Shown one piece after another: positions 2,190 through 51,565 of a stretch of 64,000 nucleotides of DNA. The stretch is from Mobula hypostoma (Eukaryota): NCBI RefSeq assembly GCF_963921235.1, contig NC_086108.1, forward strand, positions 65,660,001 through 65,724,000. The letters run 5' to 3'. The notes under the pieces were generated by a model that made no database searches, was not told where the DNA came from, and was given only the letters and a program-made list of their open reading frames with translations. The position numbers and the translations under genes were made by a program. How positions within the stretch are numbered: the first letter of the stretch is position 1; every line of letters starts with the position of its first letter.

Positions 2190-4862
2190 GTATAAGTTTG
2201 TCAAAGTTTTAGATGTCATTCTGAATCTTTGCAAACTTCTAAGGAAATAGGGGAACTGCTGTACTCTCTTCATAATTGCACTTACATGCCGGGCCAGGAC
2301 AGGGCCTCTGAAATGATAACACTGAGGATTTTGAAGTTGCTGGCTCTCTCCACTTCTGAACCCCAAAGAGGACTGGCTCATGGACCTCTGGAAGTCAATA
2401 ACTGTCATGGTCTTGCTGACTTTGGCTAAGAGGTGGTGGTTGTGGTACCACTCAGCCAGATTATCAATCTCCCTTCTATGTGCTGGCTTGTCACTATCTT
2501 TGATTTGGCCAGTGACAGTGGTGTCATCAGCAAACTTAAATGTGGCATTGGAACTGTGCTTAACCACACAGCCATGAGTGTAAATCCAGTAGATCAGCGG
2601 GCTAAACACATACTCCTACAGTGCACCTGTGCTAATGGAGATTGTGCCAATCCAAACTGATGACATTTGCAACTGAGGAAATCAAGGATCCAATTGCACA
2701 AGGCACTATTGAGACCTAGGTCTTGAAGCTTATTGATTAGTTTTGTGGAGATGATGCACTGAATGCCGAGTTGTAGTTGTCAAAGAGCATCCTGATATAT
2801 GCATTTTGCTGTCCGGATATTCCAAGATTGAGTGAAGAGTCAATGAAATAGCATCTGATGTGGACCTGTTGTGTCCATGGCCAAATTTGAGGAGGTCAAA
2901 GTCGCTCCTCATGGAGGAGTTGATATGTTTCATCACAAACTTCTGAAAACACTTCATCATTGTGGATGTAAGTGCTACTGGATGATAGTCACTGAGGCAA
3001 CTTATCACGTTCCTCTTTGGCACCGGTGAAATCTGCTTGAAGCAGGTGGGTACTTCAGACTGCTAAAGCGAGAGATTAAAGATGTCAGTGAACACTCCAG
3101 CCTGCTGATCAGCATTGGACTTTAGTACTTCCAGAGGATTGGAGGGTTGCGGATATTGTTCCTTTATTCAAGAAAGGGAGTAGAGATAGCCTAGGAATTG
3201 TAGACCAGTGAGTCTTACTTAAGTGGTTGGTAAGTTGATGGAGATAATCCTGAGAGGCAGGATTTATGAACGTTTGGAGAGGTATAATATGATTAGGAAT
3301 AGTCAGCATGAATTTGTCAAGGGCAGGTCATGCCTTACAAGCCTGATTGAATGTTTTGAGGATGTGACTAAACACATTGATGAAGGGAGAGCAGTAGATG
3401 TAGTGTATATGGATTTCGGCAAGGCATTTGATAAGGTACCCCATGCAAGGCTTATTGAGAAAGTAAGGAGACATGGGATCCAAGGGGACATTGCTTTGTG
3501 GATCCAGAATTGGCTTGCCACGGAAGACAAAGAGTGGCTGTAGATGGGTCATATTCTGCATGGAGGTCGGTGACCAGTGGTGTGCCTCAGGGATCTGTTC
3601 TGGGACCCTTACTCTTCGTGATTTTTATAAATGACCTGGATGAGGAAGTGGAGGGATGTGTTAGTAAATTTGCTGATGACACAAAGGTTGGAGGTGTTGT
3701 GGATCGTGTGGCGAGCTGTCAGAGGTTACAGTGGGACATTGATAGGATGCAAAACTGGGCTGGGAAGTGACAAATGAAGTTCAACCCAGATAAGTGTGAA
3801 GTGGTTCATTTTGGTAGGTCAAATATGATATCAGACTATAGCATTAACGGTAAGACTCTTGGCATTGTGGAGGACCAGAGGGATCTTGGGGTCCGAGTCC
3901 ATAGGACACTTAAAGCAGCTGCGCAGGTTGACTCTGTAGTTAAGAAGGCATATGGTGTATTGGCCTTCATTAATCGTGGTATTGAATTTAGGAGCTGAGA
4001 GATAATGTTGCAGCTATATAGGACCCTGGTCAGACCCCACCTGGAGTATTGTGCTCAGTTCTGGTCGCCTCACTACGGGAATGATGTGGAAGCCATAGAA
4101 AGGGTGCAGAGGAGATTTACAAGGATGTTGCCTGGATTGCGGAGCATGCCTTGTGAAAACAGGTTGAGTGAACTCAGCCTTTTCTCCTTGGAGCAACGGA
4201 GGATGAGAGGTGACCTGATAGAGGTGAAAAGATGATGAGAGGCATTGATCGTGTGGATAGTCAGAGGCTTTTTCCCAGGGCTGAAATGGTTGCCACAAGA
4301 GGACATAGGTTTAAGGTGCTGGGGAGCAGGTAGAGAGGAGATGTCAGGGGTAAGATTTTTACACAGAGTGGTGAGTTCGTGAAATGGGCTGCTGGCAACT
4401 GTGGTGGAGGCGGATACAATAGGGTCTTTTAAGAGACTTTTGGATAGGTACATGGAGCTTAGAAAAATAGAGGGCTATGGGTAAGCCTAGTAATTTCTAA
4501 GGTAGGAACATGTTTGACACAACTTTGTGGGCCGGAGGGCCTGTATCAAGCTGTAGGTTTTCTATGTTGCTATGTTTTTTCACTCAGCCAGGTCACCCAT
4601 CTGGGCCGGATGCTTTCTCTGGGCTCACCCTCCAGATGGGTACTCTGACAACAGCCTCAGATACTGAAACTACACGGCCATTGGTGGCTGTGGGAGTTTG
4701 TGATGGCTCCTCCATATTTTGATGGTCAAAGTGAGCATAGAAGGCATTGATCTCATCTGGAAGTGCAGCCCTGTTGTCATCTAAGTTGTTTGATTTAGTT
4801 TTGTAAGAAGTGATAGCATTCAAGCCCTGCCACAGCTGTCATGCGTCCTTCATTGATTCAAG
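2190..4862 (-). mobile_element. Rex1/Babar-type LINE (RT region), split by a CR1 insertion at 3130-4581
   Basis: Minus peptides LPDEINAFYAHFD...KASGPDG (4593-4823), CLSDYHPVALTSTMMKCF (2730-3023) and FKFADDTTV (2058-2609); the halves rejoin as ctttagtact/cagccagg. Confidence 0.85.
3130..4581 (+). mobile_element. 5'-truncated CR1 LINE (RT plus 3' tail)
   Basis: [82 protein letters not shown]; tail ttctatgttgctatgttt; act duplicated at 3127-3129 and 4582-4584. Confidence 0.95.
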
Positions 4863-46057: not shown

Positions 46058-46190
46058 CAAACAACAGGAATACTGCAGATGCTGGAAATTCAAGCAATAT
46101 ACATCAAAGTTGCTGGTGAACGCAGCAGGCCAAGCAGCATCTATAGGAAGAGGCGCAGTCGACGTTTCAGGCCGAGACCCTTCGTCAGGA
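46058..46190 (-). mobile_element. Single-arm Penelope terminus starting at the hammerhead
   Basis: Sequence matches the 17204 family; TSD cct(t/a)gtgaact at 46047-46057 and 46191-46201. Confidence 0.85.
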
Positions 46191-46201: not shown

Positions 46202-47436
46202 ACCTGGTCCTCCACCTGTCTTTGTATTGTCTACAAATTTGGCCACAACACCATCAATTCCGTAATCCAAATTGTTGGCATATAATGTGAAAAGAAGCGG
46301 CCCCAATACCAACACCCGCCATCCACCAATCTTCTATCCATGCTAAAATCTTTCCTGTAATACCATGGGCTCTTATCTTGTTAAGCAGGCTTATGTGCAG
46401 TACCTTGTCAAAGGCCTTCTGAAAATCCAACTAAACAACATCCACTGATTCTCCTTTGTCTATCCTATCTGTTATTTCCTCAAAGAATTCCAACAGATTT
46501 GTCAGGCATGATTTTTCCTTAAGGAAACATACTGACTTTGGCCTACTTTATCATGCATCACCAAATACCCTGAAAACTTGTCCCTAATAACGCACTCCAC
46601 CATCTTCCCAAACATTGAAGTCAGAATAACTGGCCTAAAATTTCCTTTCTTCTGCCTTCCTCCTGTCTTAAAAAGTGGAGTGACATTTGCAATTTTCCAG
46701 TCCTCCAAAACCATTCCACAGTCCAGTAATTCTGGAAAGATCTTTGCTAATGCCTCCACGAGCTTTTCAGAACCCTGAGGTGTAGTCCGTCTGGTCCAGA
46801 TAACTATCTATCTTCAGAGCTTTCGGCTTCTCAAGCATCTTCACCTCAATAATAGCAACTACACTCACTTCTTCCACCTGATATTCTCAAATTTCTGTCA
46901 TATTTCTAATGACTTCCACAGTGAAGAATGACACAAAATACGTAAGTTTTTCTGCCAGTTTTCGTCTTCCATTACAAACTCCCCAGTATCATTTTCCAGT
47001 GGTAGAATATCCTCTCTTGTCCCTCTTTTACTCTTTATACAGTATATCTGAAGAAAACTTTTGGTATCCTCTTTTATATTATTGGCCAGCTTACCATCGT
47101 ATTTTGCCTTTTCTCTCCTATTTTTTATTGGTTGCCTTCTGTTGGTTTTTAAAGCTTCCCAATCCTCTAACTTCCCACTAATTTCATTATATTATATGCC
47201 CTCTCTTTTGCTTTTATGCTTTCTTTGATTTCACTTGTCAGCCACAGTTACCTTTAGAATACTTCTTCATCTTTGGGATGTATCTATCCTACGCCTTCCG
47301 AATAGCACCAAGAAATTTCAGCCATTATTGTTCTGCTGTCATCCCTCATAGTGTCCACTTCCAATCAACTCTGACCAGCTCCTCTCTCATGCCTCTGTAA
47401 TTCTCTTTACTCCGCTGAAATACTAATATATCCGAC
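46202..47436 (-). mobile_element. CR1 LINE fragment (same family as 1-1215)
   Basis: LEDWKIANVTPLFKTGGRQKKGNFRPVILTS; VLGPLLFTLYANNLD. Confidence 0.85.
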
Positions 47437-47449
47437 TTATAGAAACCAT

Positions 47450-47976
47450 GGTTTTCGGTCAGGTGCCAGACGCTCGGAGAGATTCGCCGTGGTTGAGTGG
47501 TCGGCGACTTGGGCTGGCTCCCCCACTGGACTTAGTCTGGTGAGGAGGATGTGAGGACACCCAGCAGGACTGAAAAAACAAGACTTGACAAAGGGCGGAT
47601 GAGCTCCTTGTGAGCCAACGGCCATCTCCTGTGGAAGAGATTAAAGCCTCACCACATATCTATGAATTGTATGCTATGCACTTAGTTAGAAGAGACATGG
47701 TGAACTTGGGCACTGCACCGTGTGCCTGGACTTGCCCAAGGCATCAGCCTAAGGGAGGGCCGAGCTCGAAGAAGCGGCCTCAGCTGGAGGCCGACATGGC
47801 CTCGGGCTCGTGTTCGGCGGGGGGGGGGGGGGGCGGCGGTGGGTGGTGCCAAGGTGGCCAGCGAGAACAAACTGGAGGAGAGGCTGTACTCAGTGCTGTT
47901 GCAAGATCGAAGAAGATGGAGGTGCATAGCCGCCAACCCTGGATTCAGGAAGTCACCCACTGACTGACTGACTGAC
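47450..47976 (+). mobile_element. Short RTE-tailed non-autonomous retroelement hosting a captured gene fragment
   Basis: 3' QDRRRWRCIAANP resembles the RTE ORF end and is followed by a (ctga)n tail; possible TSD agaaa(c/g)cat at 47441-47449 and 47977-47985. Confidence 0.55.
47714..47903 (+). pseudogene. ZFTRAF1: Circularly permuted fragment of the ZFTRAF1 (CYHR1) 5' coding region
   Basis: 47714-47746 encodes [11 protein letters not shown]; 47748-47898 encodes PKGGPSSKKRPQLEA...[16 protein letters not shown] (frameshift in the G run). The recalled gene order is ...KKR...[25 protein letters not shown]. Confidence 0.85.
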
Positions 47977-48029
47977 AGAAAGCATAACGAGCATTCTCAC
48001 ATCTGTCTGGTTTGGTGCAACATCCTCTC

Positions 48030-49939: not shown

Positions 49940-51565
49940 GCAACACTCACAACACACTGGAGGAACTCAGCAGGTCAGGCAGAATCTGTGGAAAAGATCG
50001 GTCAACGTTTTGGGCCGGAACCCTTCATCAGGACTGAAGAGGGAAGGGGCAGAGACCCTATAAAGAAGGTGGGGGGAGGGTGGGAAGGAGAAGGCTGGTA
50101 GGTTCCAGGTGAAAAACCACTAAGGTGAAAGATAGAGGGGTGGGGGAAGGGAGGCAGGGAGGTGATAGGCAGGAAAGGTGAAGAAAGAATAGGGGAAAAT
50201 ACAATGAGTAGTAGAAGGAGGCGGAACCAGGAGGGAGGTGGTAGGCAGCTGGGGGAGGGGGCAGAGTGACATAGGGATGGGGGAAGGGAGGGGGAGGGAA
50301 TTACCGGAAGTTGGAGAATTCTATGTTCATACCAAGGGGCTGGATACTACCTAGACGGTATATGAGGTGTTGGTCCTCCAACCTGAGCTTAGCCTCATCA
50401 TGGCAGTAGAGAAGGCCATGTATGGACATATCTGAATAGGAGTGGGAAGCAGAGTTGAAGTGGGTGGCTACTGGGAGATCCTGTCTGTTTTGGCCGACGG
50501 AGCGGAGGTGCTCGACGAAGCAGTCCCCCAATCTGCGTTGGGTTTCACTGATGTAGAGCAGGCCACACCGGGAGCACCGGATGCAATAGATGACCCCAAC
50601 AGACTCACAAGTGAAGTGTTGCCTCACTTGGAAGTACTGCTTGGGGCCCTGAATGGTGGTAAGAGAGGAGGTGTAGGGACAGGTGCAGCACTTATGCTTA
50701 CAGGGATAAGTGCCAGGTGGGAGATTTGTGGGGAGGGACGTGTGGACCAGGGAGTCGCGGAGGGACCAATCCCTGCGGAAGGTGGAGAGGGGTGGAGAGG
50801 GAAAGATGTGCTTCGTGGTGGGGTCCTGTTGAAGGTGGCGGAAGTTGTGAAGGATAATGTGTTGGATCCGGAGGCTAGTGGGGTGGTAGGTGAGGACAAG
50901 GGGAACTCTGTCCCCGTTGTGGTGGCGGGAGGATGGGGTGAGAACCGAAGTGCGGGAAATGGAGGAGATGTGGGTGAGGGCATCATCAATGACAGCAGAA
51001 GGGAAACCACGATCCTTAAAGAAAGAGGACATTTGAGATGTCCTGGAACAGAAAACCTCATCCTCGGAGCAGATGCGGCAGAGACGGAGGAACTGGGAAT
51101 AGGGAATGGCATTTTGCATGTGGTTGGGTGGGAAGAGGAATAGTTGAGGTAGTTATGAGAGTCAGTGTGCTTGTAGAAGATGTCAGTGGACAGTCTGTCT
51201 CCAGAGATGGAGACCGAGAGATCGAGAAAGGGAAGAGAAGTGTCGGAGATAAACCAAGTGAATTTCAGGGCTGGGTGGAAGTTAGTAAAGTCGATGAAAT
51301 TGACGAGCTCAGCATGGGTGCAGGAAGCAGCACCAATGTAGTTGTCAATGTACCGAAGGAAAAGTTGGGGAGCAGTACCAGAATAGGTTTGGAGCACAGA
51401 CTGTTTCACATAACCAACGAAGAGGCAGGCATAGCTATGGCCCATGCGAGTTCCCATAGCTACACCCTTGGTCTGAAGAAAGTGGGAAGAGCCAAAAGAG
51501 AAGATATTGAGTGTGAGAACCAGTTCTGCCAACCGGAGGAGGGTAGTGGTGATGGGGAACTGGTG
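49940..51565 (-). mobile_element. Penelope-like element with RT and GIY-YIG remnants
   Basis: QTKGVAMGTRMG and FLRYIDNYIG (RT, YIDD changed to YIDN); frameshift at ~51115; GVIYCIRCSRCGLLYISETQRRLGD; hammerhead-like motif at ~50000-50034. Confidence 0.92.

Follow-up and report, generated by a model that had tools for sequence, protein, structure and literature searches.

A non-autonomous retroposon family in Mobula hypostoma with a permuted ZFTRAF1 exon-1 piece between LINE ends

Bov-A, RTESINE1/2, WALLSI3 and MAR4_MD are described in the available text of Kojima 2018 as bipartite, ORF-absent, non-autonomous RTE LINEs, and a 5′ ribozyme is known for some RTEs (PMC5786205). Dong et al. reported that open but structured RNAs can yield non-colinear junctions (PMC4897178). 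Furthermore, a modified non-LTR reverse transcriptase (RT) is able to copy several templates in end-to-end succession in vitro, as stated in the available part of the source (PMC8594491). Here, we describe an element that lies in a stretch of 64,000 nucleotides of the Mobula hypostoma genome (contig NC_086108.1, positions 65,660,001 to 65,724,000; hereafter the window). An earlier note on this DNA had proposed that a small DNA circle carrying a ZFTRAF1/CYHR1 fragment was integrated at this place. It is practically certain that the sequence is instead a member of one non-autonomous retroposon family, whose body is a permuted piece of a ZFTRAF1 exon held between two LINE ends.

The window copy occupies positions 47446-47976 on the plus strand; it lacks about the first 25 nt of the element and carries an internal deletion of about 33 nt at 47485/47486. 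It starts with a rearranged 5′ piece (47446-47485, +), in which short stretches of the LINE 5′ region stand in inverted and direct orientation and for which comparison of the full-length example L081 (about 580 bp) with the LINE copies L097 and L101 gave matches of 24-40 nt (E 8e-5 to 0.15). The first approximately 130 nt of L081, which correspond to 47446-47510 of the window, begin with an inverted LINE segment that recurs about 100 nt further in; full-length copies could thus form a predicted long 5′ hairpin, unlike the LINE copies examined. A segment of LINE 5′ UTR and ORF N-terminus follows (47486-47711, +), which is 84-89% identical to the LINE 5′ region over about 215 nt, up to the last base before the exon piece, and which has family-specific deletions of 7 nt and 10 nt relative to most LINE copies. 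Next comes segment A (47712-47751, +), the downstream 40 nt of the exon-1 piece (parent G000:C5:228091045-228091006 (-)), and then segment B (47752-47899, +), its upstream 138 nt (parent G000:C5:228091183-228091046 (-)), which measures 148 nt here through expansion of a G run. The resulting G15 run (47819-47833, +) is private to the window copy: it was found in one of the 42 copies scored at this site, 29 of which have G5. The LINE ORF C-terminus and 3′ end (QDRRRWRCIAANPGF...) extend from 47900 to 47959 (+), with T as the first base where most copies have C, and the copy ends with a (CTGA)n microsatellite tail common to the LINE (47960-47976, +). The pentanucleotide AGAAA directly upstream (47441-47445, +) is repeated at 47977-47981 and is a candidate 5-bp target-site duplication, uncertain and under the threshold of 6 nt; a duplication of at least 6 nt was sought at the window copy and none was found. 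GC content in 47714-47903 is 67%, compared with 33-45% in most of the flanks. The window copy is an ordinary family member and shows no sign of function, and a search of Rfam gave no credible RNA family, the one weak match (E 0.81) lying outside the element.

The neighbourhood contains further repeats. The left flank (46501-47436, minus strand) is an older LINE fragment that matches a second copy at 184-1119 with 71% identity over 974 nt; from its peptide, we take this fragment to be CR1-like, and the tested frame matched no Pfam family. Short matches of 74-77% between 49940-50046 and 46111-46189 and the flanks of the loci L005 and L007 represent another dispersed repeat.

The family is large. 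With 47714-47903 (190 bp) as query, 925 first-look candidates were obtained in the genome, and all 40 that were scored, 39 of them at 85-87% and one being the window itself, span essentially the full 190 bp. An exact 26-nt pattern across the junction of segments A and B matched 383 places in the genome (control 0), and since this motif is exact in 26 of 52 sampled full copies, the scaled estimate is about 770 copies; the samples were top matches and are biased to well-preserved copies, so that the true number may exceed this value. The full insert was present in 52 of the 65 distinct loci examined, and L072, which is the same place as L002, and the 13 loci without the full insert were left out before junctions were counted. 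Of the 50-51 copies aligned per site, 49-51 have the three junctions in common, as well as three fixed deviations from the parent sequence. As nearly all aligned copies share the same junctions and fixed differences, there is little doubt that the exon piece was captured once, by a single founder. Full copies differ from the parent at a mean of 5.3% of non-CpG sites and have kept 66% of the CpGs.

The family also occurs outside this assembly. Sequencing runs from three other organism labels have contigs that cover the element: one X9 contig spans both the junction of the LINE head with segment A and that of A with B, and contigs of X5, X9 and X11 span the junction of B with the tail, with at least 31 letters on each side. 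An X12 contig across the A-B junction was set aside, as X12 was only guessed to be RNA; no RNA run was found among the listed holders of the element when expression was considered. None of the contigs listed from runs of other organisms spans the flanks of the window copy. A literature search of titles and abstract openings returned no description of the family, which may be catalogued already in Repbase or Dfam.

The copies carry marks of retrotransposition. Target-site duplications of at least 6 nt were found in 22 of 53 copies, compared with a mean of 5.4 and a maximum of 10 in shuffled pairs; L030 (inverted head), L072, L074 and 10 LINE loci were left out of this count. The 5′ starts of the copies are scattered, as in 5′ truncation, and both features argue for target-primed retrotransposition. 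The duplications often open with bases that continue the (CTGA)n tail (for example in L012, L068 and L073), suggesting that the tail may pair with the target at insertion. Inverted 5′ parts occur in the element copy L030 and in the LINE copies L040 and L088, which is presumably what twin-priming-like events would leave.

Both flanks of the exon piece derive from one LINE. The element consists of a LINE 5′ part, segments A and B, and the last approximately 75 nt of the LINE with its (CTGA)n tail. When the 73-nt tail was used as query, the sequence upstream of it was A and B at 18 of 29 loci, part of B at one and LINE ORF at 10. Likewise, about 35 of the 40 scored LINE matches to the head run on past the junction into LINE sequence. 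The two LINE parts of the element lie about 3 kb apart in the LINE; the ORF interior is absent, and the element encodes neither endonuclease nor RT. The head is LINE-derived and is not the tRNA, 5S or 7SL RNA head of a classical SINE. A reading of the upstream flank as the LINE C-terminus was rejected, the sequence being the 5′/N-terminal region. In one copy of the partner LINE, the families PF03372 (endonuclease, E 3e-8) and PF00078 (RT, E 7e-9) were detected, and the homologues listed are single proteins of 913-1131 aa, with a top match of 1010 aa at 68%. A single ORF of about 1000 aa with AP endonuclease and RT, no ORF1 and a microsatellite tail are what we take to be the marks of the RTE clade, and by this architecture the partner LINE probably belongs there. 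A near-full-length partner LINE lies at 762-4862 of L046 with an open stretch of 508 aa; it is interrupted at about 3025-3900 by an insert of about 0.9 kb of another LINE-like sequence.

The 7-nt head deletion of the element is also present in two of 20 LINE copies (L095 and L098), and L098 shares one diagnostic base in addition, pointing to these copies as possible representatives of the donor LINE subfamily. Exact patterns for a precursor in which the head with the 10-nt deletion runs on into LINE sequence, and for an empty element with the two LINE parts directly joined, had no match in the genome, a search that misses diverged copies.

The parent of segments A and B is exon 1 of ZFTRAF1/CYHR1, the gene named in the earlier note. 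A pattern across the native junction, in which B precedes A, matched a single place in the 3.48-Gb genome (control 0), which bears out the expectation that the parent has the opposite order. An exon in a CpG island lies there, and its open frame runs for 109 codons between an ATG and a GT donor. The last 50 residues of the exon were matched by 118 of 291 candidate proteins (best E 6.8e-16); the best matches are from rays and skates, and most of those with names are called ZFTRAF1 or CYHR1. The identity of the gene rests on exon 1: short motifs of exon 2, sought in 100 kb around exon 1 (80 kb of it on the downstream side), gave two matches that were judged spurious, and a query of the ESM Atlas gave generic RING/Sina leads only. 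Segment B of one copy, translated and used as a protein query, matched none of 331 candidates. The exon sequence upstream of segment B is single-copy. In L039, 25 nt upstream of segment B, an acceptor-like motif (CTAAC with an AG 12 nt on) lies inside the ZFTRAF1 exon-1 coding sequence. All five cartilaginous-fish orthologues that were viewed have Val at the codon altered in segment A, and the change therefore lies on the side of the element.

The swapped order of the exon piece is real and exact. The element has the last 40 nt of the 178-nt piece first and the first 138 nt second; on the gene's strand of L039, B corresponds to 1378-1515 and A to 1516-1555. Both peptides read by the earlier note are present in the sequence, the second one with the G15 run downstream of PKGGPSSKKR; the base-level account of the note needed correction. 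The insert is 47712-47899 rather than 47714-47903. The closure, placed by the note at gcatcag|cctaag, is cta|agg, at 47751|47752 in the window. At the opening, where about 2 nt were thought to be lost at the Cys-Cys codons, parent base 1515 is the last of B and 1516 the first of A, with no base lost or repeated. There is no overlap at the A-B and B-tail junctions and 0-2 nt at the head-A junction. The exon-1 splice donor lies 4 nt beyond the end of segment A, and the insert is in sense orientation to both the gene and the LINE.

How the founder arose has to account for this exactness. The native B-A order is found only at the parent, the upstream exon sequence is single-copy and the closure has no extra bases, so that the unit was taken exactly once around; it is thus quite likely that a looped or circular 178-nt unit was copied for one turn. 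A circular or held-together unit that was cut once would be needed, because one would not expect independent internal switches to end on exactly the starting base. We give about an even chance to capture by template jumping, in which the LINE RT passed end to end over a nicked or looped exon-1 RNA. The RT would begin on the LINE 3′ end and jump onto the nick-side 3′ end of B; having copied B, it would jump to the 3′ end of A, copy A back to the nick and thereby complete one full turn, and finally jump to a LINE 5′ fragment. The product would keep the LINE start and recognition signals and could later be copied in trans. Template jumping is favoured by the sense orientation to both gene and LINE and by the joins, which are blunt or nearly so, like those of end-to-end jumping by the modified non-LTR RT in vitro; these in vitro data, however, concern R2 and not the partner LINE. 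The end of A, 4 nt short of the donor, would be close to where a free first-exon RNA ends. Folding of the RNA predicts that base 1516 is unpaired (P 0.99-1.0) and that A pairs back on B with 19-27 expected pairs; in the two contexts folded, 19% and 4% of control cut points had a higher value. This pairing signal is weak and a prediction only. In longer folds, however, the ends of the piece are ordinary in their proximity, their distance being matched or undercut in 41% and 50% of control pairs. Template jumping also requires three jumps in a single reaction, and searches with exact patterns found no intermediate. It does not predict that 178 nt falls on the peak of about 180 bp of germline DNA circles given in the available text of PMC10581685, and under a DNA route the sense orientation would simply be a coin toss.

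That DNA route, which we consider rather unlikely, assumes a circle of 178-180 bp (microDNA) that originated in the CpG island of ZFTRAF1. A single cut would have opened this circle for insertion into a LINE copy whose interior was lost, and retrotransposition would then have spread the product. The origin from a DNA circle proposed in the earlier note is thus possible for the founder event, but not at the window locus. As that note had argued, size, GC content and 5′-exon origin fit microDNA: the piece is 178 nt long, has 71% GC and a CpG o/e of 0.91, and the available text of PMC10581685 gives the peak near 180 bp, GC richness and 5′-UTR enrichment for germline circles. A circle explains the exact adjacency of B and A without extra assumptions, and permuted duplications through circular DNA are known for large segments from what is available of PMC9132208. 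Microhomology, for which the note had suggested inspecting the circle ends of the parent and which the accessible part of PMC10581685 gives as the main route of closure, is 0 nt at the closure as found. An AGG repeat lies 2 nt off, and a 180-nt version of the circle would have it at both ends; however, this near-match needs a further 2-nt deletion and occurs in 19% of random circles in the island, and copies with 1-8 extra closure bases were sought by exact pattern and not found. In addition, the route needs a lossless cut and a deletion of about 3 kb of the LINE that ends at the very parts bipartite LINEs keep.

It is improbable that the unit was a back-spliced circular RNA, joined from the exon-1 donor to a cryptic AG within exon 1, which later lost 2 nt and around which the LINE RT made a single turn. 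Since segment A stops 4 nt ahead of the donor and B opens with AG, restoring 2 nt would give a donor-to-AG junction, and pseudogenes derived from circRNA exist (PMC4897178). The junction as found, however, is not at a splice site, and extra bases are present in none of the 51 aligned junctions and in no genome-wide match to an exact pattern, which misses diverged copies. The acceptor context, which the earlier note had suggested inspecting, is weak: this AG comes third in line behind the branch-like CTAAC, and no more than 41% of the 22 nt ahead of it are pyrimidines. Moreover, first exons lack a normal splice acceptor, which counts against back-splicing.

The chance that the window holds a private, recent insertion of a DNA circle through TGCA microhomology is negligible. 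TGCA is indeed present at both ends in the window copy (47714-47717 and 47900-47903); however, the right end reads TCGCA in 34 of 51 copies, TTGCA in 7, TCACA in 6 and something else in 4, and 8 of 10 LINE copies read CGCAAG at the same site. The right TGCA is therefore likely to be a CpG decay of TCGCA in the window copy, and with it the readings of microhomology, of an empty site and of a recent event fail. Removal of the insert does not restore an empty site either, since the flanks are two distant LINE parts about 3 kb apart and an exact-pattern search found no head-to-tail form. The kept CpGs, taken as a sign of a recent event, amount to 12 of the 20 in the parent, with 8 of 138 non-CpG sites changed, which is not notably recent, and the lack of poly(A), held against retrocopying, is explained by the (CTGA)n tail of the LINE. 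Hundreds of copies share the same junctions; this census refutes a single local recombination, and the window copy arrived by retrotransposition as one of them. An assembly chimera, for which we see equally negligible room, is refuted for the family by the 383 exact junction matches over many contigs and by contigs from public runs of other organisms that bridge the junctions.

Besides template jumping, the DNA circle and back-splicing, a small share of the probability for the founder mechanism is left to other routes. Tentatively, and with clearly less than even confidence in the statement as a whole, it can be proposed that a transposon family was founded by a single nucleosome-sized circle, either a small DNA or a non-spliced RNA, which derived from a host exon in a CpG island and underwent one opening in the germline; as the body of a LINE-derived element, it would then have multiplied to at least several hundred copies in related species. 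In the family, one event has been kept at base resolution in hundreds of copies, namely the copying of a host exon piece for exactly one turn, out of register, into a retroposon. It offers a route by which bipartite LINE derivatives can gain a middle part and bears on the origin of SINE bodies, which is named as an open question in the available text of PMC5786205. The family furthermore provides a natural setting in which template jumping can be tested against the reinsertion of small circles in the germline. The hundreds of scattered CpG-rich exon copies will mislead gene annotation as well as callers of circular junctions.

The family can be compared with several known systems. With germline microDNA and eccDNA, as presented in the available text of PMC10581685, it shares the size of about 180 bp and the origin from a GC-rich 5′ gene region, whereas its closure as found is without microhomology, the nearest repeat (AGG) lying 2 nt off. 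The swapped order resembles that of duplications that arise through circular intermediates after reinsertion; the reinsertions described in the available part of PMC9132208, however, involve large DNA segments and not the body of a retroposon. Like the circRNA-derived pseudogenes of Dong et al. 2016, the family has a non-colinear host-exon junction and no poly(A), and such pseudogenes reached multiple copies once, with 33 copies of circRFWD2 (PMC4897178). Those pseudogenes have exon-exon back-splice junctions (PMC4897178), while the closure described here lies within a single exon, 4 nt ahead of the donor; the exon piece, unlike theirs, is joined to LINE ends and has multiplied as a family. 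SVA_F1 (MAST2) and the chimpanzee SVA subfamily with an STK40 exon are likewise non-autonomous retrotransposon subfamilies in which a host first exon has become fixed; according to the available text of Damert 2018 (PMC6139936), the exon was spliced onto the 5′ side of the element in SVA, whereas it is internal, permuted and not joined at splice sites in the present family. The bipartite RTE derivatives share with the family a LINE 5′ part, a 3′ end with a microsatellite tail, the lack of coding capacity and, probably, mobilisation in trans; a permuted host coding-exon middle is not among the features described in the available text on these elements (PMC5786205). In bipartite LINEs the two LINE parts are directly joined, whereas here a 178-nt host piece lies between them, and the family is a variant, not a plain member, of the bipartite non-autonomous LINE derivatives.
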